Shown here piece after piece: positions 2,978 to 63,624 of a stretch of 64,000 nt of DNA. Positions within the stretch are counted from its first letter, which is position 1. Each line of letters starts with the position of its first letter. A program made the translations under genes and the position numbers. The notes under the pieces are model-generated. The model made no database searches. It saw only the letters and a program-made list of their open reading frames with translations, and was not told where the DNA came from. Source of the stretch: OM182 bacterium BACL3 MAG-120619-bin3 (lineage in GTDB: Bacteria; Pseudomonadota; Gammaproteobacteria; Pseudomonadales; Pseudohongiellaceae); the NCBI GenBank assembly GCA_001438145.1, contig LICD01000001.1:197-64196 (forward strand). Direction: 5' to 3'.

Positions 2978-3056
2978 ACTTAGTCACTGCCTCGCTGGCG
3001 TGCGCCTCGATTGCTGAATCAGTATATTTGTCTACGCGCTATGAGCTTAGCAACAG

Positions 3057-3104
3057 GCCTGGCAAAAGACCTAGCAAAAGGCCTAGCAAAAGGCCTAGCA
3101 AGAC
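3057..3104. repeat. 12-bp tandem repeat x4 (gcctggcaaaag / acctagcaaaag / gcctagcaaaag / gcctagcaagac) in the divergent intergenic region
   Basis: Read directly. It would encode PGKR-PSKR-PSKR-PSKT only if the weak TTG start at 3028 were used. Confidence 0.9.
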
Positions 3105-3264: not shown

Positions 3265-4617
3265 ATGAAATCAACTCGTTCTATCGCTCAATCCCCGTCT
3301 GCGGCCATTCTCCTTTCATGGCTTTCTTTGTCTGCTTGGTCTTTGTTCGCGCGCTCGCTGCGAATGCGTCTTCTGAGTCTGCCATGCTCTCGATGCTCTT
3401 TATGCTTTCGGCGCTCTCTACGCTCTCTATTTTCTCTATGTTGCCTAGGCTACGCGTCGATAGGCCTCGCGCAGCCAGTAGTCGAGAACCAGTTGCTCAC
3501 CTTCGATGAATGGGTTGAGGAGTTGCGGGCTGAGGCTTTGAGTCTAGGTATTCGCTCAGAAACGCTCGAGGCTCTCGATACCTTGGAGGCACCGCTCGAA
3601 AAAGTGCTCGAATACGATAACAGTCAGCCCGAATTCGTCCAGACTTTTACCCGCTATCTCAATCTGCGCGTCACAGCGCGTCAGGTTGAGCGCGGTCAAG
3701 CGCTGCTCGATGAGCATGCTGACCTGCTGGCCGGGGTGCAGGCGAAATACAATGTACAGCCGCATTATCTAGCTGCCTTTTGGGCAATAGAAAGTAACTT
3801 CGGCAGTGCGACTGGCGGTTTTTCAGTGCTTCAAGCACTGGCCACTCTTGCTTATGATCCGCGGCGCGCTCAATTTTTTAGAGACCAGCTAATCACCGCG
3901 CTGAGAATACTGGATGCGGGACACATTGGCGCGGAGCGCATGACAGGTTCATGGGCGGGTGCCATGGGGCAGTTGCAATTCATGCCCAGCGTGTTTTTCA
4001 GCTACGGCGTGGACGGCGATGGCGATGGCCGAATCGACATTTGGAACAGCTTGCCGGATATTTTTCACTCGGCTGCCAATTTCTTAAGCCAATCAGGCTG
4101 GCAAGGGGATGAACGCTGGGGAAGGGAGGTAATACTGCCTGCGAATTTTGATTACTCACTCACCGGCGTTTCTGAACGACGCTTGTTAGAGAGCTGGCGA
4201 GCACTTGGGATCCGTCAGGTGTCCGGCGCAGCGCTGCCAGTCGCCGATATGGAAGCCTCCGTCATCCTTCCCGCCGGTGCAGATGGCCCCGCGTTTCTCG
4301 CCTATGGCAATTATCGGGCGACGCTCGCCTATAATCCTTCAACTTTTTACGCGCTAACGGTAGGCCATCTCGCCGATCGCTTTAGTGGCAGCGGCCCCAT
4401 TCAGCGAATGCCAATCAATGAGCAGGCAATGAGTTTGGCCGATGTACGAGAGCTACAAGAATTGCTCAATCTTGCAGGATTCGATTCTGGTGAACCCGAT
4501 GGGCGAGTAGGGCGCCAAACTAGAAGCGCCATCAGGGCGTATCAAGAGCGTGCACAACTTCGAATGGATGCGTACGCATCCAAAGCGCTGCTCGAGCGCT
4601 TACAAGCAGAGCGGTAA
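3265..4617 (+). CDS. lytic murein transglycosylase (MltB family) with C-terminal peptidoglycan-binding domain
   Basis: Core region AIESNFGS...GAMGQLQFMPSVF...DGDGDGRIDIW is typical of the MltB/SLT_2 family. The C-terminus LQELLNLAGFDSGEPDGRVGRQTRSAIRAYQ is PG_binding_1-like. The start is uncertain: ATG 3265 or ATG 3364, with TTG 3028 unlikely. Confidence 0.8.
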   Translation: MKSTRSIAQSPSAAILLSWLSLSAWSLFARSLRMRLLSLPCSRCSLCFRRSLRSLFSLCCLGYASIGLAQPVVENQLLTFDEWVEELRAEALSLGIRSETLEALDTLEAPLEKVLEYDNSQPEFVQTFTRYLNLRVTARQVERGQALLDEHADLLAGVQAKYNVQPHYLAAFWAIESNFGSATGGFSVLQALATLAYDPRRAQFFRDQLITALRILDAGHIGAERMTGSWAGAMGQLQFMPSVFFSYGVDGDGDGRIDIWNSLPDIFHSAANFLSQSGWQGDERWGREVILPANFDYSLTGVSERRLLESWRALGIRQVSGAALPVADMEASVILPAGADGPAFLAYGNYRATLAYNPSTFYALTVGHLADRFSGSGPIQRMPINEQAMSLADVRELQELLNLAGFDSGEPDGRVGRQTRSAIRAYQERAQLRMDAYASKALLERLQAER

Positions 4618-4691: not shown

Positions 4692-5756
4692 ATGATAGAC
4701 AGCTTGCGAGATTTCCCCATGACTACAATGACTCTTAACCCCACCAGCCAAGCCATTAGCGACGATAGAAGCCTCGTGCTATTTCGGCGCATGGCGTGGA
4801 TCACAATCATCGCGGTGTATGTTTTGATCTTGGTCGGAGCGAGCGTGCGTGCGTCTGGTTCTGGCATGGGTTGCCCCGACTGGCCGACCTGTTTTGGGCA
4901 ATGGATTCCACCGACGAGCGAGGCGCAGCTGCCGGCCAATTATCAAGAAATCTATGCCGCAAGGGGCTATGCAGAAACACGGTTTAATGTGGTCAAGACG
5001 TGGACGGAGTATATGAACCGCCTGTTGGGTGTCTCCATCGGCTTTATGATCTTTGCGACCGCGCTCTTCTCGTGGCGCACACGAGCGCACGATCCCGCTA
5101 TCGCCAAAGCCTCGATAGCCGCATTTCTTATGGTCGGCTTTCAGGGCTGGCTCGGGAGTAAAGTCGTCGGGTCTAATCTGATGCCGGGACTGATCACAGT
5201 TCACATGCTGGTTGCCTTGGCTATTGTTGGCGTATTGCTCTATGCGGTCGCCCAAGCACGTCGCGGGATAATGGCGGCGCAGCCAGTGACGGCTCTAGAT
5301 CAGCGCTTTCCTAAATGGCTTTATATTGTTCTTGGCATGACTATTTTACAGGTTGCGATGGGGACGCAAGTAAGAGAGATGACGGATCTCATTAGCAAGA
5401 TGCAAGGCGAGCAAATGCGTTCAAGCTGGATCGATGCTATGCCCTGGTTCTTTTATGTACACAGGAGCTTCTCGGCGATCGTTTTGTTTAGCAATCTCTG
5501 GCTTGCGAAATTGCTGATCACCTCGCTCGGATTCGGTCATGCGCTAACGAAGATGACGCTCGCGATGATTGCTGTCATTGTTCTTTCCGTTGTCTCGGGT
5601 GCCACCCTAGGCCACTTAGGTATGCCTGCCCTTGTGCAGCCTACTCATCTGCTCGCCGCAGCGCTGCTGTTTGGTTTGCAATTCTTAATCTGGATGAGCT
5701 ATCGCCACGCCAGAGATGCCAACGCGTCCCACCCTTCGATGGAAAACCCAGCATGA
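4692..5756 (+). CDS. ctaA: COX15/CtaA family heme A synthase
   Basis: Polytopic membrane protein with the GCPDWPTCFGQWIPP motif and conserved His residues in TM helices. Alternative start at 4719. Confidence 0.8.
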   Translation: MIDSLRDFPMTTMTLNPTSQAISDDRSLVLFRRMAWITIIAVYVLILVGASVRASGSGMGCPDWPTCFGQWIPPTSEAQLPANYQEIYAARGYAETRFNVVKTWTEYMNRLLGVSIGFMIFATALFSWRTRAHDPAIAKASIAAFLMVGFQGWLGSKVVGSNLMPGLITVHMLVALAIVGVLLYAVAQARRGIMAAQPVTALDQRFPKWLYIVLGMTILQVAMGTQVREMTDLISKMQGEQMRSSWIDAMPWFFYVHRSFSAIVLFSNLWLAKLLITSLGFGHALTKMTLAMIAVIVLSVVSGATLGHLGMPALVQPTHLLAAALLFGLQFLIWMSYRHARDANASHPSMENPA

Positions 5757-10614: not shown

Positions 10615-11244
10615 ATGAGCTCAGCTACCAACTCAACTAACAACTTATCTAACAATTCATCGTCGGATCGACAATCGCCTATTGGGCCGTATCCTCGCGC
10701 AACGATTGCCGGTCTCGCACTGCTAGTGCTGCTCGCCTTTTCATTCTCGGGTTTACGTGCAGAGACTTGGACCGCGCTATTACCGTTCTTCGAATGGATG
10801 GAGACGACGTGGTTTGGCTATGTGGGCAAAACATGGGGTGGTGCCTTTGCAACTATTCAAGCTGGCCATCTAGTCTCCCTTGGAGTTTTAGGCGGTGCCG
10901 TTTTGTTTAGTGATGGCCGCCTTTTAGGACTCTATTCCTCACTTCCGCTGCGCGAGGTGATCGATGGCTCGCATCAGGTGTTTAAGTGGGCACTCGCAGT
11001 GGTGGTTTTTACCGGCGTTTTTATGGCCTGCGGTGTCGCCGTCAAAGTCTATTACCTGCCCGTTTTCTGGTACAAAATGCTTACGCTGACAGTGGGCGTC
11101 CTCTTCGCGTTTTATGTTCGAAAACCACTCATTGATCGTGATTTGAGCGTTGTCAGTCCTTTGGTGGTTAAACTAACCGCTGTTGCAAGCATCATGGTGT
11201 GGTTTACCGTCGCGGCAACAGGTCGCTGGATCGGGTTTAGCTAA
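10615..11244 (+). CDS. integral membrane protein of unknown function (4-5 TM), distant paralog of 9994..10563
   Basis: GGAG lies 8 nt upstream of the ATG. Topology is similar to the preceding ORF, with an shared D.R(M/L)LG-type loop motif after the second helix. Confidence 0.65.
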   Translation: MSSATNSTNNLSNNSSSDRQSPIGPYPRATIAGLALLVLLAFSFSGLRAETWTALLPFFEWMETTWFGYVGKTWGGAFATIQAGHLVSLGVLGGAVLFSDGRLLGLYSSLPLREVIDGSHQVFKWALAVVVFTGVFMACGVAVKVYYLPVFWYKMLTLTVGVLFAFYVRKPLIDRDLSVVSPLVVKLTAVASIMVWFTVAATGRWIGFS

Positions 11245-12201: not shown

Positions 12202-12999
12202 CTAGGCGAGGCTCTGATCCATCGTTTGGGCGGGGCTATCGGCCTCGCATTTGCCTATCTCCCGCGCGGGGACGCCTACCACAGTCGTGTGCGGCCTCAC
12301 GTCAGACAACACCACGCTGCCTGCCCCAATTTTTGAGCCACTGCCAATTTCGATGTTGCCCAATACTTTGGCCCCTGCCGAAATGAGCACGCCCGAACGG
12401 ACTTTCGGATGGCGGTCGCCTTGCTCGTTGCCTGTGCCGCCGAGCGTTACGTGTTGGAGTATCGATACATCGTCGTCGATGACACACGTCTCACCAATCA
12501 CAATGCCGGTCGCATGGTCGAACATAATACCCATGCCAAGTGTGCAGCCGGGGTGGATATCTACAGCGAACACCTCAGCGTTGCGACTCTGAATAAAGGA
12601 CGCGAGCGCGCGCCTTGAATGTGTCCAAAGGTAATTGGCAAGGCGATGTACCTGAATCGATTGAAAACCTTTCAGATAGAGTACAACCGGAAGATACGTG
12701 CTGGTCGCAGCGTCACGCTCATAAACAGCTCTGATATCGGCACTTGCGGCTAGAATCAGTTTAGGCTCTGCGTCGAATGCCTCTTCAAAGAGTTCGCGCA
12801 ACGACACAGCGGACATCACCTCATCCGCAAGCTTGTTCGCCAATATCACGCTAAGTGCGGAGGCAAGGCTGCGATGGTTTAGAATGCAGTTGTATACATA
12901 GCTGGCTAACAAGGGCTCTTCAGCGATTGCCAGCGTTGCTTCTTCGCAAAGTTTTACCCAAACGAGACTCGGATTACGTTCGTCGACTGCTGTGTTCAA
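12202..12999 (-). CDS. cysE: serine O-acetyltransferase
   Basis: Hexapeptide-repeat left-handed beta-helix (DIHPGCTLGMGIMFDHATGIVIGETCVIDDDVSILQHVTLGGTG...DRHPKV) preceded by an SATase N-terminal helical domain. Confidence 0.9.
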   Translation of the reverse strand: MNTAVDERNPSLVWVKLCEEATLAIAEEPLLASYVYNCILNHRSLASALSVILANKLADEVMSAVSLRELFEEAFDAEPKLILAASADIRAVYERDAATSTYLPVVLYLKGFQSIQVHRLANYLWTHSRRALASFIQSRNAEVFAVDIHPGCTLGMGIMFDHATGIVIGETCVIDDDVSILQHVTLGGTGNEQGDRHPKVRSGVLISAGAKVLGNIEIGSGSKIGAGSVVLSDVRPHTTVVGVPAREIGKCEADSPAQTMDQSLA

Positions 13000-13146
13000 T
13001 GAGGATTCCTTGGGGATTTACTCTAAGCGCGATTAAAAAGCGATTAAAGGACAATTAAAGAGCTAGGTAAGTAAAGTGCTTGAGTACTAGATAATCAGAT
13101 GGGGAGTTTACTACTTATTAACGCTGTCGCCAAAAAAAGCGGGTGT

Positions 13147-16100
13147 TTAGTCAATGGCAGCCTTCTTCAGAAGAGCTTTGGTTTTTTCGAGCTCATGTTC
13201 TAAACCAAGACGAGTTTCGGTTTCTATCGTTGGAATGGACAGAACAAAATAGGCTGTCCTCACAACCTCTCGCCAGCGTGGAACTTTAGGTAGTTGTTCT
13301 AGCCTTAAATACCGATCGAATGTGCGTGTGCGAAGACGGCCGTCATCTATGCTAACCGCCCAAATATTGCTTTCCTCGGCGAGTTCGATTTTAGACTTCT
13401 GCGTAGTCACCTCCCAAGCATGAAGTGCAGAGCGCATGAGCGTCACGAGTTGCTGACGATACTCGCTATCACTGTCCATATCGGGGAGGTTAGAAGTAAT
13501 TTTCGCAACAAGCGAGTCGATCCTGATCAGCTCTTCGAGCAAGTCGGGTTGTTGATTTAATTCAATAGGTTTAAGCACGCTGAGTCTTGCGTTTATTCTA
13601 CGCATGTTCTGTTGAACTTGCCCTAATATGCCAACAAGCTCGGCCGCATCATACCTCTTCTTGCTCCGACAACCCTCTTCTGAGTTTTCTTTATCTGTGA
13701 GGATGAAGAGCACGCCAGTGCCCTCGTTATTACCGAAGAGCATAAGGCGAACGTCGGCAGTAACCATTTCCGCATTAAGCTTGTTTGCGTCGCCGTAAGG
13801 AATGGCCAGTTGTATTTTCTCCTGCAGCGAAAACACCAAATCGCCTGAGTTACTTTGCAGGTCTTCAGTTTCCCATCTGGCGAGTGCGTCGAGCAGTTTT
13901 TCGCTGTTCAGGCTTTTTTTGAAAACGCTTGCGATCTCTGCTCCCTCGAGGGTTTCCCTGTCAGTGCCGAGTAGGTCAGTTGCTGTCTTATTAAAGCTGA
14001 AAATTTGGCCTGGTAGCTCGAATGCAATGAAGCCTTCATCGATCGTTTCAAGGACTTGTTGTAATTGCATCCTTGAGTGTCGCAGTTCCCTGTCAGCTTC
14101 CGAATAGGATTTAATTAACGATCGTAGGCGCATATTTTCTTTGCTAGTCCGATGCATCAAGCTTAATTTAAGCTGGTTTTCTACGCGCGATTTGAGTTCC
14201 TGCTTGTGAAATGGCTTTGGCAAAAAATCATTGGCACCTGTCGCTAATGCTTCGGCTAAATTCTCGAGATGATTCTTCGCAGTCACAAGAATAATTGGCA
14301 GTTCTATTGGGTTATAGCGTTGACGAATTTTTTGGCAGACCTCATGGCCGCTAAGCCCGGGCATCATCAGGTCTAGCAAAATCAAATCGGGTTTCGATTC
14401 AGCGACAGCGGTTAATGCGTCCATTCCATTGGTGTAGTTGATAACGGTGTATTCTGACAACTGTTGGCCTATTACGATTCGATTGATTTCGTCGTCATCG
14501 ACGATCATCACCGTGATATTTTGCTGGCTTCTTAGTGCTGGGTCAGCCTCTCTTCGCAAGGCTTCCTGCGCAAACTCGGCGCGCATAATCATTTGCTCAT
14601 CAAATGTGCTAGCAACACTCGCTCGGCTCTGATCGAGAGCCATTCTCAGATTGAAGCTAAATTCAGAGCCAACACCTAACGCGCTGGTCATGCTGAGTTT
14701 GCTAAGATGCATCTCGATCATGTGCTTAGCGATGGGTAACCCTAGACCAACACCTTGAGCATTCTGTTTCCTCGAGGGCAGTTTCTCAACGTTGCGAAAT
14801 ATCTTTTCGTGCTCGCTTTCGTGTATGCCGATTCCCGTGTCTAAGACACGGATTCTAATCATTGAGTCTGCAATGACTTCTCCACCGATATCGACTTCTC
14901 CGCTGCGCGTGAACTCAATAGCATTAGCGGTCAGGTTTACGAGTATTCGCTGGAGTCTATCCTTGTCAGCCTCGATTAATGGCAGCTCTGGATCTACCGT
15001 GTTGCGCAGTTTAATTGGTTTTTCACCGATCTTAGGTGAGCAGATAGCAATGATAAGAGTCGCCATTCTATGCAGGTCGACCGATTCAAGCTTAAGCTGA
15101 TTCCCGTCTGGTCCTCGCGACGAGAAATCTAAAAGGTCATTAACCAGCGTCATCAGCCTGTCGCCGCTAGCTTGGATAAGTTCTAGATTCTTTATGATTA
15201 GTCCGGCGTTTTGGTTGTTTCGCCGAAACGCCTCTAACGCATTCCCTGCTAGACCATTAATACCGAAAAGGGGTGTTCGCAACTCGTGCGACACATTCGC
15301 GAGTAAATCGTCTTTGATGCTTTCGGCACGAACAAGATTATCTATGGCCAGTCTTTGCGCATCCTCTTTCTCTTGGTTGATCAAGGCATAACGTGTCGAA
15401 AGGCTGAGGGACAAGAGGAGAGCTTGGGTGATTAGGCCAAGGTTGTAAGCGCTAGCGCTGAAAATGTTCACTGGGAAGCCCGGGACAGCTTCAACGAGGA
15501 GGTGAGCAGTGATGCCGATAATACAAGCGCTTGTAGCGGCTGAGTGGAGTAGTGCTAGTGATCGGTTTCCGTTGCGCATCGAATCTAGATTGGAGCAGAG
15601 AACGACAGGAAGACCAATGACGAGCAGGGTAATTAACGAAAATTGATAATACGTTTTATCGGGTATCAAGCTTAATAGCGCAGCAACACAGAAGGCTGTG
15701 ATCAACCATCGTCCTACATTATCGAGGAACGAGTTGTTTTGTGGAATATTTAGCAAAGACCGTTGGAAAGCGATGAAGCTGACGGCTGCGGCGGGATAAA
15801 TTAAGCGCTCTGCAGTGTCTAAAAGCCAGAGGCTGGTCGTGAAATCGCCAAGCAGAAAACTTAGGTGGTGGGCATTAAGAAAGAGTAAAACAGTTTGTGC
15901 GCCAATCGCGAGGACGTATAGGAGATAAACTCGATCTCTCAGCCTAATGAATTGGAACAGGTTGAAAAACATCATAGCAAGTAACAAGCCATACAGAGCT
16001 CCCAGCCCAATATTAGCTGCGGATGCCTCCTGTGCCCTTAAGGCGGCAGCCTCATCGAGACTCGGCATGCCCGATGGGCCGTCAAGATAGGTTGCCGAAA

Positions 16101-16305
16101 GTGCGGCATCGAGCTGAGCTGGGGAAAGCTCCGCTTGCGCATAGGCTGGGTCGACAGCGGTTAGCGTAAATGTCACTAAAAAAAGTGGGCAAAAGTTAGT
16201 GAGCAACGTGCGCAGAAGAGGGAGGTTGTTGTCTGTCCAACGACAAGGCGTGGTAGAGTGTCGAGACGCAAAAAAAAGATTATGAAGCGAGTGTTCAGAC
16301 CTCAT
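13147..16305 (-). CDS. hybrid sensor histidine kinase/response regulator (7TM sensor, HisKA, HATPase, REC, PAS-like, unknown C-terminal domain)
   Basis: About 7 TM helices (aa ~95-300). H-box LLANVSHELRTPL. G-boxes DTGIGI and GVGLGLPI. REC domain VMIVDDDEINR...DLILLDLMMPGLSG...KPF. PAS-like segment VLETIDEGFIAF. About 190 aa of unassigned C-terminus. Confidence 0.85.
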   Translation of the reverse strand: MRSEHSLHNLFFASRHSTTPCRWTDNNLPLLRTLLTNFCPLFLVTFTLTAVDPAYAQAELSPAQLDAALSATYLDGPSGMPSLDEAAALRAQEASAANIGLGALYGLLLAMMFFNLFQFIRLRDRVYLLYVLAIGAQTVLLFLNAHHLSFLLGDFTTSLWLLDTAERLIYPAAAVSFIAFQRSLLNIPQNNSFLDNVGRWLITAFCVAALLSLIPDKTYYQFSLITLLVIGLPVVLCSNLDSMRNGNRSLALLHSAATSACIIGITAHLLVEAVPGFPVNIFSASAYNLGLITQALLLSLSLSTRYALINQEKEDAQRLAIDNLVRAESIKDDLLANVSHELRTPLFGINGLAGNALEAFRRNNQNAGLIIKNLELIQASGDRLMTLVNDLLDFSSRGPDGNQLKLESVDLHRMATLIIAICSPKIGEKPIKLRNTVDPELPLIEADKDRLQRILVNLTANAIEFTRSGEVDIGGEVIADSMIRIRVLDTGIGIHESEHEKIFRNVEKLPSRKQNAQGVGLGLPIAKHMIEMHLSKLSMTSALGVGSEFSFNLRMALDQSRASVASTFDEQMIMRAEFAQEALRREADPALRSQQNITVMIVDDDEINRIVIGQQLSEYTVINYTNGMDALTAVAESKPDLILLDLMMPGLSGHEVCQKIRQRYNPIELPIILVTAKNHLENLAEALATGANDFLPKPFHKQELKSRVENQLKLSLMHRTSKENMRLRSLIKSYSEADRELRHSRMQLQQVLETIDEGFIAFELPGQIFSFNKTATDLLGTDRETLEGAEIASVFKKSLNSEKLLDALARWETEDLQSNSGDLVFSLQEKIQLAIPYGDANKLNAEMVTADVRLMLFGNNEGTGVLFILTDKENSEEGCRSKKRYDAAELVGILGQVQQNMRRINARLSVLKPIELNQQPDLLEELIRIDSLVAKITSNLPDMDSDSEYRQQLVTLMRSALHAWEVTTQKSKIELAEESNIWAVSIDDGRLRTRTFDRYLRLEQLPKVPRWREVVRTAYFVLSIPTIETETRLGLEHELEKTKALLKKAAID

Positions 16306-17434: not shown

Positions 17435-19435
17435 CTAATTAGGCCTAGGAATGGGGCTGAAATAGAATTCGGTGATTAGACTATTTGTCACCTCGCCACT
17501 ATCACTCACTAGTTCGAGTTGGAGTGTATGCGCGCCTGGACTCAAATCACCTGTCTCTATTTGGTAGCGGTAACCCAACTGGGGAAATTGAGAATCCAGC
17601 AGCGCCCCTGCAACGATGTCCAGATCTGTGCGCTCGGTTCTTGAGCCCGAATAGGGCGCAGACTTCCCGTCGATTAACACACGAATCAGGTCGACTTTGT
17701 TCCCTTCTGCAAAAGCCCAGCCGCTGACTGTAAAGTTCTCTGCCACGCGCTCGCCGGCAGCCGGTGAATCAATCCATCCCCGCGCTGGAATCGAGCACTC
17801 GATGGGTTGAGCGGGCTCGGCTATGTGGATTGCGTAAAACGAAAATCGTTTGGCGCCTCCTACAAGGTCGATCTGCTGCAAGAATTTGAGTCCTACGGAT
17901 ACGGCGCAGGCATGCTGGAGCAGCGCTCTTTTCTGCCCAAAGTTTAGGGTGCTGTCCTCTGTGATTAGCAGCGCTGGCGAGTTTTTATTGTCGATCAGCG
18001 CTTCCGTATCCATGCCCCAGAGCGAAAGCTGAAGCGCGCGGCCGTCGCGGACCGCTTTTTCAGTGTCGAGCGTGTAAATTGAGTTGGGCTCTCCGAGTTT
18101 GGCGAACGCGAGTTGCGCCGCTGTATAGTAATTGTCGGTCACGATGAGTGGCGGCTCTTCAAAATGAGCCGCGACGACAAGCCGCGTTTCAGCGGCAAAC
18201 GGCGCCCAACCAGCCATTTTTGTCGAAAGCACCCCCATCCCTAAAATCGGTTGCAGCTGCGTGTGCAGCGACTGCGATCCCACGCCGATAAGTGCAGTCA
18301 AGCTGCCCAGATAGCCTATGCCGAAAAGCAGAGCGGTGACCCTGCGGCCTATCGCGAAAGACGACGTGAGCCTGCGAAGCGCAGCTGGCGCATAGATTAG
18401 AAGCGGTATATACCCAGCGAGGGGCCAGTGGAGGGTTGTGCTGGTTGGGTCGCTAAACGGGGCTAGCGCGGCGTAGAGAACTATATGCAGCGCGGCAATA
18501 AGGGCAACAAGCCTTGCATTAGGTTCGGCACTTCGAAGTAATCCGAGGCCGGTAGCTAGCAGCAATCCGTACAAAAGTGGTGTCGATAGCAGCGCTTGCT
18601 CGAATAAGTGTAGCAAGCCCGCAGGACGAAACTCCCAAGGATGGCGGTCGACTAGGTAAAAAGCGAGACTGCCCATCTGATGGCTCGCGTTGAATAAAAT
18701 GACCGGTACGAGGCCAGCCGCTGCAATGACGAAAGCGATTAAGGTCCGGGGATTACGCCATAATTGTCGCGACGAAGAATCCCACAGGAGTAATAAAACA
18801 GCGCCTGCGGGGAAAAGGCTAAATCGGTAATGCGTTGAGAGCCCGAGGGCAACGACGACACCTGTCGCAAGCCAGTGTGTGAGCGAATCGGTTGCTCTTG
18901 CGCGGATGAAAAACCCGATAGCTAGCAGCCCTAAAAAGACTAGGGGAACGTCGGGGACGGCGAGAAGACCAAGCGAACTGGCGAGCGGGAGGCAAAGAGA
19001 CAGGAGTGCCGCTTCCCGCGCCTCGGCCTTGCCGACTAGAGGCAAAGCCGTCCAGTAGAGAACAGCAGGAAGGCTGCAGCCTATCAGGAAGAAGGGCAGA
19101 CGCACGGCGAAAGGCGTATCGCCCAAGACCGCAGTGCCGAGACCTGCCAATAACGAGCTCATGAAAGGAAGGTCGCTGTAAGCAAGTGCGGGACGAGTCG
19201 ATTCGAACCAGTAGAATATTTCGTCGCTGTAGAGCTCTAGGCGGAATGCGAATAGCGCTTTTAGAGCAAAGATCAATGCGCCGAGGGGCCACAGCCAGTG
19301 GCTAGCCAAATGCCGCAGTGGGTCTGTTGGAATGCTCATTTGGGATTGCTTCACGCAGCTCTCGTTGTTTCCATCGTTCTCATTGTTCTCATTGCTGTCA
19401 TTATTCATAGTGTTGACGTCAATCAAACGGGTCAC
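17435..19435 (-). CDS. GT39/GT83-like (ArnT/PMT-type) membrane glycosyltransferase with C-terminal Ig-like soluble domain
   Basis: The YSDEIFYWFES...LAYSDLPFMS loop after TM1 is typical of dolichyl/undecaprenyl-phosphate-sugar transferases. More than 10 TM helices. The start is uncertain: GTG 19435, ATG 19408 or ATG 19339. Confidence 0.7.
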   Translation of the reverse strand: MTRLIDVNTMNNDSNENNENDGNNESCVKQSQMSIPTDPLRHLASHWLWPLGALIFALKALFAFRLELYSDEIFYWFESTRPALAYSDLPFMSSLLAGLGTAVLGDTPFAVRLPFFLIGCSLPAVLYWTALPLVGKAEAREAALLSLCLPLASSLGLLAVPDVPLVFLGLLAIGFFIRARATDSLTHWLATGVVVALGLSTHYRFSLFPAGAVLLLLWDSSSRQLWRNPRTLIAFVIAAAGLVPVILFNASHQMGSLAFYLVDRHPWEFRPAGLLHLFEQALLSTPLLYGLLLATGLGLLRSAEPNARLVALIAALHIVLYAALAPFSDPTSTTLHWPLAGYIPLLIYAPAALRRLTSSFAIGRRVTALLFGIGYLGSLTALIGVGSQSLHTQLQPILGMGVLSTKMAGWAPFAAETRLVVAAHFEEPPLIVTDNYYTAAQLAFAKLGEPNSIYTLDTEKAVRDGRALQLSLWGMDTEALIDNKNSPALLITEDSTLNFGQKRALLQHACAVSVGLKFLQQIDLVGGAKRFSFYAIHIAEPAQPIECSIPARGWIDSPAAGERVAENFTVSGWAFAEGNKVDLIRVLIDGKSAPYSGSRTERTDLDIVAGALLDSQFPQLGYRYQIETGDLSPGAHTLQLELVSDSGEVTNSLITEFYFSPIPRPN
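19376..19402. repeat. 9-bp tandem repeat x3 (gttctcatt, gttctcatt, gctgtcatt) in the 5' end of the glycosyltransferase ORF
   Basis: Read directly. It encodes the N/E/D-rich stretch NDSNENNEN. Confidence 0.8.
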
Positions 19436-26307: not shown

Positions 26308-26336
26308 TTGTCATATTACTGTAATATTTTCGTCAT
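26308..26336 (+). promoter_or_regulatory. Pho box (three 7-bp direct repeats at 11-bp phasing)
   Basis: TTGTCAT-atta-CTGTAAT-attt-TCGTCAT compared with the CTGTCAT-N4-CTGTCAT consensus. About 90 bp upstream of the pstS ATG, in the ppk/pstS divergent region. Confidence 0.75.
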
Positions 26337-26425: not shown

Positions 26426-27426
26426 ATGAATGCCATAATTAAAAAGATTAGTTGCATCAGGCTTGTAGGCCTGGCCACAGTGGCGCTGTTAGGCAGCGCA
26501 CCGGCTGTCGCTGCAGACGTCGATTCAGCCATTCCGGTGTATGAGAGCACCAGTGGAGTGTCGGGCAACCTGTCGAGCGTAGGATCGGATACGTTGGCGA
26601 ACCTAATGACGCTATGGGCGGAGGACTTTAAGCGTGTCTATCCGAACGTGAATATTCAGATTCAGGCGGCAGGTTCGTCGACAGCGCCACCAGCTCTCAC
26701 CGAGCGTACCGCGAATATCGGCCCGATGAGTCGTGAGATGAAAGACAATGAGATCGAGGCATTCGAGTCTCGCTATGGCTACAAGCCTACTGCAGTGCCG
26801 GTAGCGATCGACGCGCTGGCGGTTTACGTGCATAAAGACAACCCGATCGAAGGCTTGTCTCTGCCACAAGTAGACGCAGTGTTTTCTTCTAATCAGCGCT
26901 GCGGCTTTGCTACCGATGTCGTTAACTGGGGGCAGTTAGGGCTCTCTGGTCCCTGGCAACAGCGCGGTATGCAGCTTTTCGGACGTAATTCTGTGTCGGG
27001 TACCTATGGCTACTTTAAAGAAGCGGCGCTTTGTGACGGCGACTTCAAAAATAATGTTAACGAGCAGCCGGGCTCTGCATCGGTTGTTCAGTCGGTGAGC
27101 ACTTCTATTAACGGCATTGGTTATTCTGGTATCGGCTATCGCACCTTTATCGCACCTCAAGCGTCCGTGCCGTGCCCATTGCGCGCACCGAAGGCGGCGA
27201 TTTCTTCGAGGCGACGCCTGAAAATTCGGTTGCGGGCAATTACCCGCTCGCGCGCTTCTTGTATGTCTATATCAACAAAGCGCCTAATACGCCGTTGCCG
27301 CCGCTCGAGCGTGAGTTCCTCAAACTGGTGCTGTCACAGTCTGGTCAAAATGTTGTGCTAAAAGATGGTTATATCCCATTGCCAGCCCGTGTTGTTGAGG
27401 GGACCCTGCGTAACCTCGGCATATGA
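26426..27426 (+). pseudogene. pstS: PstS-family phosphate ABC substrate-binding protein, frameshifted by an 11-bp tandem duplication
   Basis: ORFs 26426..27361 and 27172..27426 are the N- and C-terminal parts of one PstS-like protein (GSDTLANLM...; ...[14 protein letters not shown]...). tatcgcacct occurs twice, at 27137-27146 and 27148-27157. Removing 11 nt gives an uninterrupted 329-aa ORF reading ...[18 protein letters not shown]... Confidence 0.8.
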
Positions 27427-27475: not shown

Positions 27476-27513
27476 CAAGAGGCTAGGCGAACGGGGTTCG
27501 GGCTAGCCTCTTG
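27476..27513 (+). terminator. strong intercistronic stem-loop between pstS and pstC (possible partial terminator or mRNA stabiliser)
   Basis: Perfect 11-bp stem caagaggctag/ctagcctcttg with an inner 5-bp stem cgaac/gttcg. Followed by tcattt, which is only a weak U-tract. Confidence 0.55.
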
Positions 27514-27625
27514 TCATTTGGTGCGACAGAAATATCGAAAGGCTTGCCTCAAGGGTGACCCGTAACGGTGACTCCTTTGCCATTAAACTGTAATATTCGC
27601 GCTCACCGATAAAGAACTAGACCCT

Positions 27626-29962
27626 ATGCCTGCAGATAACTTACCCGAGGCGCAGTCGCGACTCATAGACGACGAGCCTAGCCAATCGGTCAAAGTCTCG
27701 GTTTTGTCTTCCGAGAAGCTCGCTTCCCGTCGCCGCTGGCGCCATCTGAGCGACAAAACGGCGAAGGTGAGTATCGCAGTGGGTGGCATCAGCGTGATTG
27801 TCGCGATCCTGCTTATCTTCGCTTATTTATTTTATGAAGTCGTTCCACTTTTCGCTGGAGCTACGGTCGAAGAGGCGGCGTCCTACGATCTCCAAGATTC
27901 TTCAGCGAGCCTGCATTTGGCGATCGAAGAGCAGTCAGAGATGGCGATGCGTCTCGGAGACGATGGCGTGGCGCGCTTTTTTGATCTTGAAAGTGGCGAG
28001 AACGCTGCGACGATTGCCGTTAAGGTTCCCTCCGGCGCGACGATAACCAGCTTTGCGCTAGACTCAGAACAGTCAGGTTTATTTGCGTTGGGTCTCAATA
28101 CTGGTGAGGCAGTTGTTGCGCGTTATGCCTATGACACGCGTTTCGCGCAGCTAGACAATCGGCGCATTCTCACTCCTAAAATCGACTACCCGTTTGGGGA
28201 AATCCCCTACACGCTTGCCGTTGACAAACCGCTCGCCTCGATCGCACTGCGAACCTCCGGCGAGAATATGATGCTCGCCGCGACAGCGCGAGGCGGCGAA
28301 CTTAGCCTTCTCAAAGCAAGTAAACAGACAAGTCTGTTCGCAGCGTTCGACCTAGGCGGCGGCGCCGAATTTGAAATAGAAGAGAGACGGCTAAGCGGAA
28401 TGACCCTCGGGGGAGAACAACTTTTCATCGACGGCGATCGCTTCTGGTTGTTCGTCATAGACGATGAAGGCCTTGCGCGACTTCTGAGTCTGCGCACCGC
28501 CTTCACTGCCCCCAATCCACAATTCGAAGTACAGGCTCTCTTAACGGCAGGGCGCGCTAACCCTACTGATATCTCCTTCTTGCTCGGCGGAATTTCACTG
28601 CTCGTTGGTGATGATCAGGGCGCGATATCGCAGTGGTTTCTCACGAAGCGCGACGACACCGTTGCGCTAGAGAAGATTCGAAGCTTCCAAGACTCGGCGT
28701 CTCCGGTTGTGTCGCTCAGCCCCGAGCAGCGCCGTAAGAGCTTCGTGAGTGTCGATGCGCAGGGTGTGGTTTCGCTGTTCAATACGACAGCACGACGACA
28801 GGCATTTACCGGACAGCTGGCGGCCGATGGCGCGCGCGCGCTTGCAATCTCCCCGCGGGGCGATGCGCTGCTTATCGAAAGCGGACGAGGCCAGATGGCG
28901 CTTTGGGCGGTAGAGAACAAACACCCCGAAGTGTCGTGGTCTGCACTGTGGAGTCGAGTCTGGTACGAAGGGTACAGTGAGCCCGACTTTATTTGGCAAT
29001 CCTCGGCGGCAACGAACGAGTTTGAGCCCAAATACAGCTTGGTCCCATTGTCGTTTGGTACTTTAAAGGCCGCTTTTTACGCGATGCTTTTAGCCGCCCC
29101 GTTAGCGATTTGTGGTGCGATCTTTACCGGTTATTTCATGGCGCCAATGATGCGCCGCAAGGTAAAGCCGTTAATTGAATTGATGGAGGCATTACCGACC
29201 GTTGTGTTGGGCTTCCTTGCCGGTCTTTGGCTCGCCCCTTTCGTTGAGAATAACCTGCTCGGCATTTTCTCAGTGCTGGTCATTCTCCCGCTAAGCATTT
29301 TGCTTATGAGTTTTTTCTGGGTGCAGCTACCAAGCGAGCTTCGGCATCGAATTCCCGATGGCTGGGAAGCGGGCATACTTATCCCCGTGATCGTTGTGTT
29401 TACTGCACTGTCATTCGCTATTGCAGCACCCCTTGAGGCGCTGTTCTTTGGCGGTGACATGCGTTTCTACCTGACCAATGAGCTGGGCATTAATTACGAT
29501 CAACGCAATGCCATGGTGGTCGGTTTTGCGATGGGCTTTGCGGTGATTCCGACAATATTCTCGATCGCCGAAGATGCGATTTTTACAGTGCCAAAGCATC
29601 TGACCTACGGCTCGCTAGCCCTCGGCGCCACGCCCTGGCAGAGTCTCTACCGAGTGGTCCTGCCAACGGCTAGCCCAGGCATTTTTAGTGCGTTGATGAT
29701 TGGCATGGGACGTGCGGTTGGCGAGACAATGATCGTATTGATGGCTACGGGTAATACGCCCATTATGGATATCAATATCTTCGAGGGCATGCGCACGCTT
29801 GCAGCGAATATCGCCGTCGAGATTCCCGAGTCTGAAGTAGACAGCACCCATTACCGCATCCTGTTCTTGGCAGCTTTGGTGCTGTTTATGTTTACCTTTA
29901 TGTTTAATACCGTCGCTGAGGTTATCCGCCAGCGCCTACGCGATAAGTACAGCACTATATGA
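27626..29962 (+). CDS. pstC: phosphate ABC transporter permease PstC (long form)
   Basis: C-terminal BPD-transporter core (...EALPTVVLGFLAG...GATPWQSLYRVVLPTASPGI...) preceded by a ~450-aa N-terminal extension. Confidence 0.9.
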   Translation: MPADNLPEAQSRLIDDEPSQSVKVSVLSSEKLASRRRWRHLSDKTAKVSIAVGGISVIVAILLIFAYLFYEVVPLFAGATVEEAASYDLQDSSASLHLAIEEQSEMAMRLGDDGVARFFDLESGENAATIAVKVPSGATITSFALDSEQSGLFALGLNTGEAVVARYAYDTRFAQLDNRRILTPKIDYPFGEIPYTLAVDKPLASIALRTSGENMMLAATARGGELSLLKASKQTSLFAAFDLGGGAEFEIEERRLSGMTLGGEQLFIDGDRFWLFVIDDEGLARLLSLRTAFTAPNPQFEVQALLTAGRANPTDISFLLGGISLLVGDDQGAISQWFLTKRDDTVALEKIRSFQDSASPVVSLSPEQRRKSFVSVDAQGVVSLFNTTARRQAFTGQLAADGARALAISPRGDALLIESGRGQMALWAVENKHPEVSWSALWSRVWYEGYSEPDFIWQSSAATNEFEPKYSLVPLSFGTLKAAFYAMLLAAPLAICGAIFTGYFMAPMMRRKVKPLIELMEALPTVVLGFLAGLWLAPFVENNLLGIFSVLVILPLSILLMSFFWVQLPSELRHRIPDGWEAGILIPVIVVFTALSFAIAAPLEALFFGGDMRFYLTNELGINYDQRNAMVVGFAMGFAVIPTIFSIAEDAIFTVPKHLTYGSLALGATPWQSLYRVVLPTASPGIFSALMIGMGRAVGETMIVLMATGNTPIMDINIFEGMRTLAANIAVEIPESEVDSTHYRILFLAALVLFMFTFMFNTVAEVIRQRLRDKYSTI

Positions 29963-31647
29963 AAATTAGCGCGTCAAAATGGTTGAGTTCAGGGACTCCC
30001 TTCGTTTGGCTAAATGCCGGTGCGGTGGCGATCAGTATTCTCATGGTGGTTGGGTTGCTTGGCCTTCTAACCGTGCGCGGCATGGCGCATTTTTGGCCTA
30101 CCGACGTGATGCAGGCGAACTATGCGCCACCCGTTGCCTTTGGCTCTGTTATGTCGACAGAGGTGCTTGGCGAAAAGGTCGAGACCGAAAGCGTGTCGAG
30201 CATTCAGATCGCGTCGTCGGGCATTCCGGTCGATGAATCGATTCCGACTTACGAACGAGAGCTCGTCAAGCTCGGCAACAGAGACGTAACCGGCGCCGAT
30301 TTCGCCTGGTTGTTGAGCAGCTATATCAGCGATATCCGCTATCCAGCTAATGTGGTTGTGCTTGAGCGCCGCGAATGGGGCAATTTCTATGGGTTCCTCT
30401 CAGGCGTCAAAGAGTCTGGCGAGCGTGTTGTGCAAGGCGCAGGGGATGATGCTGCGCTGTGGGACGAATTCGAACAGCGGCTTAGCCGCGCTCTTGCGAT
30501 TCATGACGAAATTTACCGAATCGAAAAGCAGGAGATCGGTGAGGTTAACTATGCGCTCGAACGCCTCAGGTTGAACCAGAGGGGATTAGAGTTAGACGGT
30601 GCATTTGATGCAGAAACCGAAGCCGAGTTCGCCGCGCAGCGTGAAGAATTGGGCTCAGAGTACGCGCTCTTGCAGCAAGACTTGGTGGTGTTGAATCAGA
30701 CTATCGAGCGTGATTCGGCGCAGTTTTTCGCAGCGAATGGCGCAGAGATCGAGGTGGAGTTTGCCGACATAGTACGCGCCTACAGGCCTAACCAGATGGG
30801 CTTCGCCGAAAAGCTGCTAACCTATTTTGCCAAACTAGGTGAGTTTCTTACCGATGAACCGCGCGAGGCGAATACCGAAGGCGGCATTTTCCCCGCTATC
30901 TTCGGCACGGTGATGATGGTGCTTTTGATGTCGGTGTTCGTGACCCCCTTTGGCGTCGTCGCGGCTGTTTATTTGCGCGAATACGCTCGGCAAGGGTTTG
31001 TTACCCAAGCAATACGCATCGCGGTGAATAATCTTGCCGGTGTCCCATCGATTGTCTACGGTGTTTTTGGTTTAGGCTTTTTCATCTACATTATCGGTGC
31101 CGAGGTCGATCAGCTTTTTTACCCTGAGGCATTGCCCGCGCCGACCTTCGGTACGCCGGGGTTGCTTTGGGCGTCACTCACACTAGCGCTGCTCACCGTG
31201 CCGGTTGTGATTGTAGCCACCGAAGAAGGGCTTGCGCGCATTCCGCGCAGCGTGCGTGAAGGCAGTCTCGCGCTTGGCGCGACAAAGTTTGAGACGCTAT
31301 GGCGCGTCGTGTTGCCTATGGCGAGTCCCGCGATGATGACCGGCCTTATCCTCGCCGTCGCACGGGCAGCCGGAGAGGTTGCTCCTCTCATGCTCGTAGG
31401 GGTGGTTAAACTTGCACCGTCGTTGCCGCTTGATGGCAATTACCCCTATCTTCATCTCGATCAAAAATTCATGCACCTCGGCTTCCATATTTATGATGTC
31501 GGATTCCAGAGTCCTAATATCGAAGCTGCGCGGCCGCTTGTGTTTGCCACGGCCTTACTGCTGGTTATCGTCATTGCAGGGCTGAATTTAAGCGCGGTGG
31601 CACTGCGTAATCGACTGCGCGAAAAGTTTAAGTCTCTCGAAGTATAG
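29959..31647 (+). CDS. pstA: phosphate ABC transporter permease PstA (long form)
   Basis: Its ATG overlaps the pstC stop (ATGA). C-terminal core EGSLALGATKFETLWRVVLPMASPAMMTG. Confidence 0.9.
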   Translation: MKISASKWLSSGTPFVWLNAGAVAISILMVVGLLGLLTVRGMAHFWPTDVMQANYAPPVAFGSVMSTEVLGEKVETESVSSIQIASSGIPVDESIPTYERELVKLGNRDVTGADFAWLLSSYISDIRYPANVVVLERREWGNFYGFLSGVKESGERVVQGAGDDAALWDEFEQRLSRALAIHDEIYRIEKQEIGEVNYALERLRLNQRGLELDGAFDAETEAEFAAQREELGSEYALLQQDLVVLNQTIERDSAQFFAANGAEIEVEFADIVRAYRPNQMGFAEKLLTYFAKLGEFLTDEPREANTEGGIFPAIFGTVMMVLLMSVFVTPFGVVAAVYLREYARQGFVTQAIRIAVNNLAGVPSIVYGVFGLGFFIYIIGAEVDQLFYPEALPAPTFGTPGLLWASLTLALLTVPVVIVATEEGLARIPRSVREGSLALGATKFETLWRVVLPMASPAMMTGLILAVARAAGEVAPLMLVGVVKLAPSLPLDGNYPYLHLDQKFMHLGFHIYDVGFQSPNIEAARPLVFATALLLVIVIAGLNLSAVALRNRLREKFKSLEV

Positions 31648-31726: not shown

Positions 31727-32542
31727 ATGAGAAAAGTAGATGTTAGTTCAGTGCTCGGTGCTAGCGCGGAAAACCCCGAAGGCTTAGAGAGCTGCATCGA
31801 TGTTTCGGGACTGAACCTTTACTATGCGAAAGACAAGCGTGCTCTTAATGGCATCGACTTGAAGATTCCGAAGCAGCGAGTGACTGCGTTTATTGGCCCG
31901 AGCGGCTGCGGTAAATCTAGCCTGCTGCGCTGCCTGAATAGAATGAATGATCTTGTCGATGACTGTGTTATCGATGGGCTGATCGAGATCGACGGTGAAG
32001 ATATCTATTCGAAGCATGTCGATGTTGCAGACCTGCGCAGACGAGTCGGCATGGTGTTCCAGAAGCCAAACCCCTTTCCAAAATCTATTTATGAAAATGT
32101 CGCATATGGTCTGCGTATACAGGGGATCAACTCGAAGCGCGTGCTAGACGAAGTCGTCGAAAAGTCACTGAGGGCGGCGGCACTGTGGGACGAGGTAAAA
32201 GATCGCCTCCACGACAGCGCGCTCGGGATGTCGGGTGGTCAGCAACAGCGTCTGGTTATCGCTCGCACGATCGCCGTCGAACCAGAGGTGCTGCTGCTCG
32301 ATGAACCGGCCTCCGCGCTAGACCCTATTTCTACTTTGAAGATCGAAGAGTTAATCCATGAGCTCAAACGCGATTATACGATCGTGATTGTGACGCATAA
32401 CATGCAGCAAGCTGCGCGCGTTTCTGATTTCACCGCATTTATGTATATGGGTGATATGGTTGAGTTTGACGCGACCGATAATATCTTCACGAATCCTGCG
32501 AAAAAGCAGACCGAAGACTATATCACTGGGCGTTACGGTTAA
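31727..32542 (+). CDS. pstB: phosphate ABC transporter ATP-binding protein PstB
   Basis: Walker A GPSGCGKS, signature SGGQQQRL, Walker B LLLDEP, and the PstB-typical C-terminus [10 protein letters not shown]. Confidence 0.95.
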
Positions 32543-51880: not shown

Positions 51881-51914
51881 CACAGCTATTGCGCCGGCAC
51901 GAAGAGCTTCACGC

Positions 51915-51986
51915 CAGCAAAGAGAGCTATGTCAGCACAGAGAGCTAAGCCAACACAGAGAGCCACGCCAGCACAGAAAGTCCATC
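51915..51986. repeat. noncoding 18-bp tandem repeat x4 (cagcaaagagagctatgt / cagcacagagagctaagc / caacacagagagccacgc / cagcacagaaagtccatc)
   Basis: Read directly. It lies downstream of the stop at 51880. Confidence 0.85.
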
Positions 51987-59495: not shown

Positions 59496-61994
59496 TTAAG
59501 TGTCTGCTGAGGATTGCTGACCAAGCTTAGTTCGCTGCGTTCTCGCCGCAGGGTCTAAATGAATCGGGGCAAGGCCTGCAGCAAGCTGCGCCCTGTCGCG
59601 TCGCTCTGCGGGCGCGTCGGCATAGAGCGTCGAACGCATTCTAGGCTCACGACCTAGGGCCCGAATTGTCGTCTCTATTTCAGCGGGCGACCATTCTTCG
59701 CCGTGCTCGGCTCCTGCGGCGCGGGTAATGCTTTCATTCATCAGCGAGCCACCGACATCGTTGGCCCCAGCATTAAGGCAGGCTGCTACGCCTTCGCGAC
59801 CCATTTTAACCCATGACGCTTGTATGTTGTCGATGAGGCCGTTAAAGACTAAGCGCGGCACTGCGTGCATCAAGAGAGCCTCGCGGTAACTTGGGCCGCG
59901 GCGTGCTTTTCCTTTTTTGTACATTGGTGCCTCGTGCGCCACAAAGGGCAAGGGTACGAATTCGGTGAAACCGCCTGTCCTGCGCTGCAATTCGGCGATC
60001 GAATAGAGATGTCGCGCGCTGTGCTCGGGGCTCTCGATATGGCCGAACATTATCGTTGCCGTAGTCCTGAAGCCTATTGCATGGGCGCTTTCCATCACTT
60101 CTAACCATTGCGCCGAATTGAGTTTGTCGGGGCACAGGTGCGCCCGCACATCGTCGTGAAGTATTTCAGCTGCAGTACCAGGCAAAGTGTCGAGCCCCGC
60201 ACTTTTTAAGCGCGCTAAAAATTCTGTCAACGGCACGTTAAGCGTTTCGGCGCCTTGCCAGACCTCGAGCGGTGAAAAAGCATGAATGTGCATAGCCGGT
60301 GTTGCTTTTCTCACGGTTGCGATTATGTCGAGATAAGTCTGTCCTGTGTAGTCGGGATGGATTCCACCCTGCATACAGACCTCGGTAGCGCCGCGCTCCC
60401 ATGCTTCGACGCAGCGCCGAGTTATTTCTTCGGCACTTATGTCATAAGGCTTACCGCGCAGATTCTCGCTGCCACTGCCTTTAGAAAAGGCACAGAACTG
60501 ACATTTGAAATAGCAGACGTTGGTGTAATTGATATTGCGGTTAACCACATAGCTCACTGTGTCGCCAGACACCTTTTTGCGCAGCGTGTCTGCGGCCTCA
60601 ATAACGGCGCCAAAGTCGGCGCCGCGGCTACGCAGCAGAGTAGCGATCTCAGTCTCTGCCAAAGGCTCACCTGCTAGGCAGCGCTCGATTAGAGCCGCGA
60701 CAGCGGGTTTTGCTTGTGCGAACGGCAAGCTCAATTCGGTGGAAGGCGCATGCTCGCTAATTCCTGCGATCCACTCATCACGTTTGGCATACCCTTCGCC
60801 ATCACTTTGTTTGCGCGCAGCGGGCTGCACTTTTGGCGAAAGCCATGTGTCTGCTTCTACAAGGTAGCGTGGATAGAGTGTTAAGCGCTGATCGAGATAT
60901 TTACCCGCGCTGCCCGTATCGCGTGCTAGTTGGGCGAGATGCGGCCAAGGCGCCTCAGGATTGACGTGATCGGGGGTTAGCGGCGACACGCCGCCCCAAT
61001 CGTTAATGCCGGCTGCAACCAGTTGCTCTAATACGCCGGGGCTCAAATTGGGCGGTGCTTGAATAGACATCTCGGCACCAAAAATCAATCGGGCGACGGC
61101 GATAGTCCACACCAGTTCTTCTAGATCAGGCTCTGGCGCAAGTGCCATCTTAGTGTGTGGCTTTGCACGAAAATTCTGCACAATGACTTCTTGCAGATGT
61201 CCGTAGCGACGATGCGATGTTCTGAGAGCGAGCAGCGACTCGATGCGCTCTAATCGCGTTTCACCAATGCCTATCAAAATGCCAGACGTAAAAGGCACGC
61301 GCAGTTCGCCGGCGAGATCAAGCGTCGCGAGGCGAGTGATAGGATCTTTGTCCGGCGAGCCATAATGCGGCATACCCTTTTCACAGAGTCGTGTAGAGGC
61401 TGATTCAAGCATGATGCCCATCGACGCGCTCACGTCACGCAAGGCGAGCATTTCGTCGCGGGTAAGATTGCCGGCGTTAATATGTGGTAGCAGCCCAGTC
61501 TCGACAAGCACTCGCCGCGCGACTTCGATCACGTAGTCTATGGTCGTCTTGAAACCTAATGCGGCAAGGCTTTCGCGCGCGGCGCGATAGCGCAATTCTG
61601 GTTTTTCACCGAGCGTGAAAAGCGCTTCTTGACAGCCCAATGCGGCACCAGCTTTGCAGGTCGCTATGACTTCGTCGATCGGCATATACGCCTGAGGAAT
61701 ATGTTTTGGCGTTTGCGCGAAAGTGCAGTAGTGGCAGACATCGCGGCAGAGTTGGGTGAGGGGGATGAACACCTTGCGTGAGTAAGTGACGACATTGCCA
61801 AAGCCTAAATCTCGACAATGCGCCGCTTCTTGGGCGAGTCGTGCGGTGTCTGTGCGGCTGGCAAGCGCGAGTGCTTCTTTATCGCCGAGCACTTTATCGC
61901 CGAGCACTGCATCGCCGCGCACTCCACCGTCGAGTGATCCGTCGCTGTGCGCGTTTTGACCGAGCGCAGTGTCTTCAGGCACGCTTATTTTCAT
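59496..61994 (-). CDS. fbiC: bifunctional FO (7,8-didemethyl-8-hydroxy-5-deazariboflavin) synthase, CofG-CofH fusion
   Basis: Two radical-SAM CxxxCxxC clusters, CRDVCHYCTF in the N-terminal half and CYFKCQFCAF in the C-terminal half. At 832 aa, the length and order match FbiC. Confidence 0.85.
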   Translation of the reverse strand: MKISVPEDTALGQNAHSDGSLDGGVRGDAVLGDKVLGDKEALALASRTDTARLAQEAAHCRDLGFGNVVTYSRKVFIPLTQLCRDVCHYCTFAQTPKHIPQAYMPIDEVIATCKAGAALGCQEALFTLGEKPELRYRAARESLAALGFKTTIDYVIEVARRVLVETGLLPHINAGNLTRDEMLALRDVSASMGIMLESASTRLCEKGMPHYGSPDKDPITRLATLDLAGELRVPFTSGILIGIGETRLERIESLLALRTSHRRYGHLQEVIVQNFRAKPHTKMALAPEPDLEELVWTIAVARLIFGAEMSIQAPPNLSPGVLEQLVAAGINDWGGVSPLTPDHVNPEAPWPHLAQLARDTGSAGKYLDQRLTLYPRYLVEADTWLSPKVQPAARKQSDGEGYAKRDEWIAGISEHAPSTELSLPFAQAKPAVAALIERCLAGEPLAETEIATLLRSRGADFGAVIEAADTLRKKVSGDTVSYVVNRNINYTNVCYFKCQFCAFSKGSGSENLRGKPYDISAEEITRRCVEAWERGATEVCMQGGIHPDYTGQTYLDIIATVRKATPAMHIHAFSPLEVWQGAETLNVPLTEFLARLKSAGLDTLPGTAAEILHDDVRAHLCPDKLNSAQWLEVMESAHAIGFRTTATIMFGHIESPEHSARHLYSIAELQRRTGGFTEFVPLPFVAHEAPMYKKGKARRGPSYREALLMHAVPRLVFNGLIDNIQASWVKMGREGVAACLNAGANDVGGSLMNESITRAAGAEHGEEWSPAEIETTIRALGREPRMRSTLYADAPAERRDRAQLAAGLAPIHLDPAARTQRTKLGQQSSADT
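61878..61922. repeat. 15-bp tandem repeat x3 (tttatcgccgagcac x2, tgcatcgccgcgcac) in the 5' end of fbiC
   Basis: Read directly. It encodes VRGDA-VLGDK-VLGDK, before the catalytic domain begins. Confidence 0.9.
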
Positions 61995-63519: not shown

Positions 63520-63588
63520 AACTATCTTCCTTTGGCTGGCCGCACTGAGAAGCTTGCTACGCAAGCAAGATAACCCTAGTTAACTCGC

Positions 63589-63624
63589 GAGCTACATCGA
63601 GAGCTACATCGAGAGCTACTTCGC
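63589..63624. repeat. 12-bp tandem repeat x3 (gagctacatcga x2, gagctacttcgc) spanning the stop codon of the hotdog gene
   Basis: Read directly. Confidence 0.85.

Follow-up and report, generated by a model that had tools for sequence, protein, structure and literature searches.

An 11-nt near-duplication, private to one fragmented assembly, splits the phosphate-binding protein gene pstS of an uncultured marine member of the Pseudomonadales

The pst locus and its interrupted first gene

The stretch of DNA analysed here (64,000 nucleotides, hereafter the window) comes from an uncultured marine Pseudohongiella/OM182-like member of the Pseudomonadales and carries a phosphate-uptake locus in the order ppx, ppk (minus strand), pstS, pstC (778 aa), pstA (562 aa), pstB (271 aa), phoU and phoR. 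Its own genome, G000, is a draft of 474 contigs, the shortest of them 1 kb long, with an N50 of 10 kb and no scaffold gaps; these contig statistics are typical of a metagenome-assembled genome (MAG). The features of the locus used below are the following, in window coordinates.

26308..26336, + strand: Pho-box array upstream of pstS, three phased heptamers TTGTCAT-ATTA-CTGTAAT-ATTT-TCGTCAT (pattern search)
26426..27361, + strand: broken first frame of pstS, 311 aa, made of authentic residues 1-240 and a 71-residue out-of-frame tail (ORF list, Pfam)
27136..27146, + strand: inserted 11 nt, CTATCGCACCT (base-by-base comparison with contigs L024-L026 and 19 JGI contigs)
27147..27157, + strand: resident wild-type copy, TTATCGCACCT, with the codons Gly-Tyr-Arg-Thr-Ser of GIGYRTS (same comparison and orthologues)
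27148..27426, + strand: authentic C-terminal 92 PstS residues in the shifted frame (ORF list, alignment with PDB 4OMB)
27493..27510, + strand: terminator- or attenuator-like hairpin between pstS and pstC (consensus scan only)
27577..27594, + strand: second Pho box, TTGCCAT-TAAA-CTGTAAT, 5' of pstC (pattern search, 1 mismatch)
27626-29962, + strand: intact pstC (ORF list)
29959-31647, + strand: intact pstA (ORF list)
31727-32542, + strand: intact pstB, followed by phoU (ORF list)

Pho boxes were searched with YTGTMAT-N4-YTGTMAT, which we take to be the PhoB binding-site pattern, and the array upstream of pstS matched it at 0 and 1 mismatch. The locus has the gene order ppk / pstS-pstC-pstA-pstB-phoU / phoR and the Pho boxes of known PstSCAB-PhoU systems, and shares the long PstC and PstA of the Pseudomonas type. 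The second Pho box suggests that pstCAB-phoU may possess a PhoB-dependent promoter of its own and, together with the preceding hairpin, that the permease and ATPase genes are probably independent of read-through from pstS. As the first-pass annotation stated, the genes downstream of pstS are intact: pstC, pstA, pstB and phoU are full ORFs, and the PstC protein is identical to one found in 326 blocks of public assemblies.

Within pstS, the string TATCGCACCT occurs twice by exact string match, at 27137-27146 and 27148-27157 with T27147 in between, as previously noticed, and Tandem Repeats Finder returns one repeat at the site, with an 11-nt unit and 1.9 copies. The earlier description as an 11-bp tandem duplication has to be amended in one respect: there is indeed a frameshifting 11-nt near-duplication of pstS, but the two 11-mers, CTATCGCACCT and TTATCGCACCT, differ, agreeing in 10 of their 11 positions. 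Where the window has GG-CTATCGCACCT-TTATCGCACCT-CAAGC, its closest contigs show GG-TTATCGCACCT-CAAGC, which makes the change a pure insertion of CTATCGCACCT after G27135, with its placement fixed. The borders of the insert lack microhomology and the mismatch lies at its first base, while deletion of either 27137-27147 or 27148-27158 returns the exact wild-type reading. By our own calculation, some 20 period-11 matches at 10/11 are expected by chance in a genome of this size; the insertion is therefore shown by the comparison with the wild-type allele and not by the repeat statistic.

The consequences for the reading frame are those given in the first-pass annotation. The first frame leaves the authentic sequence after residue 240 (…GIGYRT) and runs into a Cys/Arg/Ser-rich tail that ends at 27361, and the authentic C-terminus continues in the shifted frame to 27426, as judged from the ORFs and their translation. 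This shifted frame is open from 27112, after a TAA stop at 27109-27111, and gene callers annotate 27172-27426 as an 84-aa ORF. The window hence lacks a single uninterrupted PstS frame, the break at 27136-27146 leaving ORFs of 311 aa and 84 aa. Removal of 11 nt does yield the announced 329-aa PstS, full-length by both Pfam and structure alignment: it covers positions 5-266 of the 267 of PF12849 (PBP_like_2; E 2.9e-27), versus 5-187 for the broken ORF, and aligns with PDB 4OMB, the closest solved structure, over residues 19-329 (E 5.7e-149). The restored protein is thus a full-length match to the PstS family and structure, whereas the product encoded in the window, broken after residue 240, would be devoid of the C-terminal 27% of the fold.

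The gene in the population and among relatives

The split organisation, which the first-pass annotation had envisaged as possibly common to orthologues, was found in none of 18 orthologues from the genus and the order. All are single ORFs and read GIGY(R/K)T-SSVR at the site (GIGYRTSSVR in congeners), and the 11-nt repeat is absent from the orthologues in at least 18 genomes. Closer to the window, three long contigs (L024-L026), 99.7-99.9% identical to it over 10.3 kb, carry an intact 329-aa pstS 5' of a gene for an identical PstC. A gapped DNA pattern that could match one, two or three copies of the 11-nt unit retrieved 19 JGI metagenome contigs, each of them single-copy. A single copy was hence present in all 22 fully checked contigs (L024-L026 and the 19 JGI contigs; 94-99.9% identical to the window). 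Together with three contigs bearing other lesions of pstS (L132-L134, see below), they constitute a sample of 25 population contigs, none of which has the duplication, so the check for copy-number heterogeneity of the 11-mer, which the first-pass annotation had suggested, shows none. At the protein level, an exact look-up placed the intact 329-aa protein on 206 contigs and the broken 311-aa product on none. Apparent deletions of pstB in L026, L049 and L051 were actually 100-N scaffold gaps.

By these sequence comparisons, the split of pstS is private to one fragmented, MAG-like assembly and not a feature of the population. The absence of the insertion from the other public assemblies of the population points to a one-off lesion or an assembly error, not to a genetic switch. 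The pattern is that of a recent pseudogene, with a disrupted frame, intact close relatives and no further decay of the operon.

The cost of losing the gene depends on what else could import phosphate. No second copy of pstS, which the first-pass annotation had suggested looking for, was found elsewhere in the genome: G000 has no second PBP_like_2 gene, and neither a Pit (PHO4) nor a Na/Pi cotransporter was found in it. Pit is encoded in 34 of 40 high-quality congeners and is missing from a small-genome subclade made of G000 and the congeners G003, G012, G050, G051 and G054; as these nearest small-genome relatives also lack it, two of them being 99-100% complete, the absence is a lineage trait. 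PstC and PstS were detected in 38 and 36 of the 40 high-quality congeners, respectively. By gene content, then, Pst is the one phosphate importer that can be recognised here. Fixation of a pstS null should therefore be strongly deleterious and is biologically implausible in this lineage.

In E. coli and Pseudomonas, pst loss-of-function makes the Pho regulon constitutive and abolishes high-affinity uptake, and both organisms retain the Pit transporter. If real, the lesion of the window would resemble these mutants in being a pstS null with pstCAB-phoU intact. It would differ from them in its cost, which should be much higher in a lineage without Pit.

Some congeners show irregularities of their own in these genes. 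A pstS remnant with several stop codons lies at G010:C361:5735-6077, and pstC is in two adjacent pieces at G018:C1:230968-233273 and G051:C72:2399-4631; each could be real decay or an assembly frameshift.

Origin of the eleven extra nucleotides

The reading we favour, with a probability of about 0.5, is an artefact of the assembly or consensus step rather than a genuine null variant of recent origin; the 11 extra bases are most likely absent from the genome of the dominant cells. The assembly or consensus step would have placed two strain alleles of one 11-nt segment in series at a strain-variable site, first CTATCGCACCT from the co-occurring 95-97% lineage and then TTATCGCACCT from the host lineage itself. 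The real gene would be an ordinary intact 329-aa pstS, controlled by the Pho boxes and heading pstSCAB-phoU. The insert is identical to the allele of this co-occurring lineage, its first base C being the allele of that lineage at a synonymous site. Elsewhere in the vicinity, the window agrees with its own lineage at every variable site. It shows a single further substitution relative to L024 in 10.3 kb, and the one additional change specific to the window in this neighbourhood, T>C at 27136, coincides with the first base of the insert. A technical cause is what we infer from this pattern.

A parallel lies outside the window. A genome-wide scan of G000 was conducted for short near-duplications whose removal restores an ORF. 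The scan was noisy, nearly all matches being chance fusions of neighbouring genes or gene-end repeats, and the only candidate that held up was on C106. There, at 5441-5460, AACCCTACCA is inserted 5' of GACCCTACCA in a DUF3604 gene: the insert is 10 nt long, mismatched at its first base (a transition) and placed ahead of the wild-type unit, the same anatomy as in pstS. The restored 644-aa protein covers positions 2-591 of the 591 of PF12228 and is on 157 public contigs, versus a broken 557-aa product that occurs only on G000's own 7,407-nt contig. The gene is a single ORF in congeners, and a single copy of the unit is present in four population contigs. Genuine tandem duplications normally reproduce their template perfectly, and two imperfect ones, each mismatched at its first base, need a common special cause; that this odd anatomy recurs in another private event of G000 tilts the balance towards error.

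A third lesion of the assembly, on C51 (~11098-11149), had come up in the scan as a short duplication and turned out to be a frameshift of 1 nt, CGCCCGG(G)CG, in a conserved PQQ-dependent dehydrogenase gene that is unbroken in congeners (NPAPDLPAYLRPGENLY). Two further candidates of the scan, C55 (wrong-frame sequence) and C180 (TPR matches only), were dropped.

In favour of an artefact, then, are the privacy of the insertion, its identity with the allele of another strain, the odd anatomy shared with C106, the 1-nt frameshift of C51, the fragmentation of the assembly, the implausibility of a fixed null where Pst is the sole importer and the lack of any other decay in the operon. The case resembles the consensus errors of mixed-strain MAGs in its privacy, its strain-variable site, its use of the allele of another strain and the second event of the same form. 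It differs from them in that the exact pattern is undocumented (our literature searches found no MAG error mode giving precisely this result) and in that graph assemblers should not create junction k-mers. A de Bruijn graph assembler cannot invent novel junction k-mers, and the junction k-mer CACCTTTATCG was met in none of the sampled strains and, by a 15-mer search, nowhere else in the genome; the duplication was thus either in at least some of the reads or introduced by a non-graph step. Also against an artefact are the freedom of the assembly from scaffold gaps, the active short tandem-repeat dynamics of the species, the DUF3604 insert, for whose allele (Asn, AAC) no strain was found, and the existence of other pstS-null alleles in other assemblies.

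Several other sources for the insertions were considered and set aside. The junction 15-mer being unique in the genome, no ectopic template is available for the pstS insert, and a 12-mer match on C176 is by chance; the DUF3604 paralogue was set aside as template for the C106 insert, as it encodes Asp and not Asn. Non-homologous end joining was discarded on the lack of any detected Ku gene, and a transposon-excision footprint on the position of the altered base, which is at the outer edge of the duplication instead of the central junction.

The main alternative to an artefact, to which we give somewhat less credence while taking it seriously, is that the cells themselves underwent a very recent loss of function, a replication or repair error having inserted a near-copy of the next 11 nt. 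The allele would then be that of the cells dominant in the sampled population, and either transient and deleterious or locally tolerated. PstS would be cut after residue 240 and lose the last 27% of its fold, so that no phosphate would be delivered to PstCAB. As in E. coli pst mutants, expression of the Pho regulon would become constitutive. An exact return to the wild type could occur by slippage between the 10-nt repeats. This possibility gains from the junction argument, as the junction must be in the reads if a graph assembler was used, and from the exact reversion obtained by deleting one unit. It also gains from the quality of the window, which is otherwise without coding indels relative to the population contigs: the pstS insertion is the only coding frameshift in ~46 kb compared with contigs >99% identical, which indicates that the assembly is not error-prone in general. 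The remaining indels are copy-number changes in the 9-nt arrays near 3429 and 19394, a 1-nt indel between ORFs at 46018 and, relative to more distant contigs only, indels between ORFs of 22 nt at 13038 (vs L048) and 1 nt at 26203 (vs L048 and L029); offsetting 1-nt alignment gaps at 23705/23708 leave the length unaltered. It is moreover normal for a bacterial genome to have a few private frameshifts, and short tandem repeats that differ in copy number from contig to contig, such as these 9-nt arrays, are abundant in this one.

Against a real mutation stands first the selective cost: with a sole pstS, no Pit or Na/Pi transporter and a Pst system conserved across the genus, a null should be strongly selected against and is unlikely to prevail among the cells of a sample. 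Slippage does not typically leave an imperfect first base or borders without microhomology, the recurrence of exactly this oddity in another gene (C106) suggests a technical cause, and the allele is absent from every other assembly.

Short tandem arrays with units of 9, 12, 15 or 18 nt are found in the window at 2902-2949, 3048-3101, 3386-3429, 19360-19406, 51913-51977, 61877-61923, 63456-63504 and 63585-63623. An AT-rich CTTTAAT repeat at 13032-13060 lies beside the 22-nt indel vs L048, between the ORFs 12202-12999 and 13147-16305.

A further point in favour of real mutation is the presence of independent pstS-null lesions in other assemblies of the species: three other contigs (L132-L134) have the 84-aa C-terminal fragment annotated as a gene. 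L132, a 61-kb scaffold from another sample (SAMEA6236708, scaffold_123), is 99.84% identical to the window and without the duplication; its pstS (L132:4266-5255) has a TCA>TAA stop at codon 241 (27158, C>A) together with three further substitutions in 220 nt. L132 and the window differ at five positions over 10 kb, and four of these hence fall in a 220-nt stretch of pstS; this allele is a singleton in the protein collection. L133 and L134, short ENA contigs of a more divergent, 94-97% lineage, share a 37-nt frameshifting deletion (~27075-27111), which is flanked by the quasi-repeats CTGCAT and CGGCAT and lies ~25-60 nt 5' of the insertion site. The two belong to separate ENA assembly records, with contig names that suggest different assembly pipelines; as they start at the same position (26890) and have the same differences over their shared length, they may nevertheless come from one sample.

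A special case of real mutation, which we consider improbable and whose likelihood is already included in that of real mutation as a whole, is a hotspot of recurrent pstS inactivation in natural populations at ~27090-27160, either mutation-prone or repeatedly hit by selection that favours the loss of Pst or a constitutive Pho response. Three different null lesions within ~70 nt, two of which touch codon 241, speak for it, as do the clustering of four of the five differences of L132 in 220 nt of pstS, the rare variant 26998A common only to the two other null haplotypes, and the quasi-repeats GGCATTGGTTAT / GGTATCGGTTAT in the region. The L132 allele is a singleton, however, L133 and L134 may come from one sample, and the survey covered pstS alone. 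The look-up of the 84-aa fragment detects only breaks at ~27095-27172, so that the clustering is partly built into the method. A 269-aa product on 21 contigs (P0047), which might have been a common 5'-broken allele, was traced to the calling of start codons and to gaps in scaffolds: five of its loci have all of the first 60 codons intact, and N-runs or contig ends occur at the other five.

Finally, a programmed or contingency device, whether the phase-variable 11-nt on/off switch of phosphate scavenging proposed in the first-pass annotation or a frameshift read through by the ribosome, is very improbable and fails its defining tests. Ten-nt direct repeats can support rare slippage deletions, and the site resembles slippage duplications and contingency loci in being a head-to-tail near-repeat with a unit length not divisible by three, the loss of one unit restoring the frame exactly, but it comprises two imperfect copies only (1.9 copies, 10/11 match; mismatch at the first base, no microhomology) and no multi-unit tract, with no two- or three-copy state in the 25 population contigs, no conservation of the repeat in the orthologues of at least 18 genomes, no X_XXY_YYZ slippery heptamer in the overlap 27100-27361 of a gene whose orthologues are single ORFs, and a product that belongs to a conserved housekeeping transporter and is no surface antigen.

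Significance for the lineage and for other MAGs

The split of pstS is of an ordinary kind, either a private frameshift or a MAG assembly error. Its signature, in which a near-copy altered at its first base stands directly ahead of the wild-type segment, occurs twice in G000 and could be screened for in other MAGs; the duplication-bearing marker sequences are CTATCGCACCTTTATCGCACCT at pstS and AACCCTACCAGACCCTACCA at C106.

If the lesions are real, there would be three independent pstS-null alleles, amounting to a recurrent inactivation in the wild of a seemingly essential uptake gene, which would be modestly interesting. Should the hotspot exist, a streamlined population that relies on Pst only would repeatedly carry pstS nulls clustered in 70 nt, driven by a mutational hotspot or by selection, e.g., in phosphate-replete brackish water or under arsenate stress.

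The case is above all a caution: the split pstS should not be taken as lost phosphate scavenging or as a regulatory switch of this organism. The pstS of the population is intact and forms part of the lineage's only recognisable phosphate importer.
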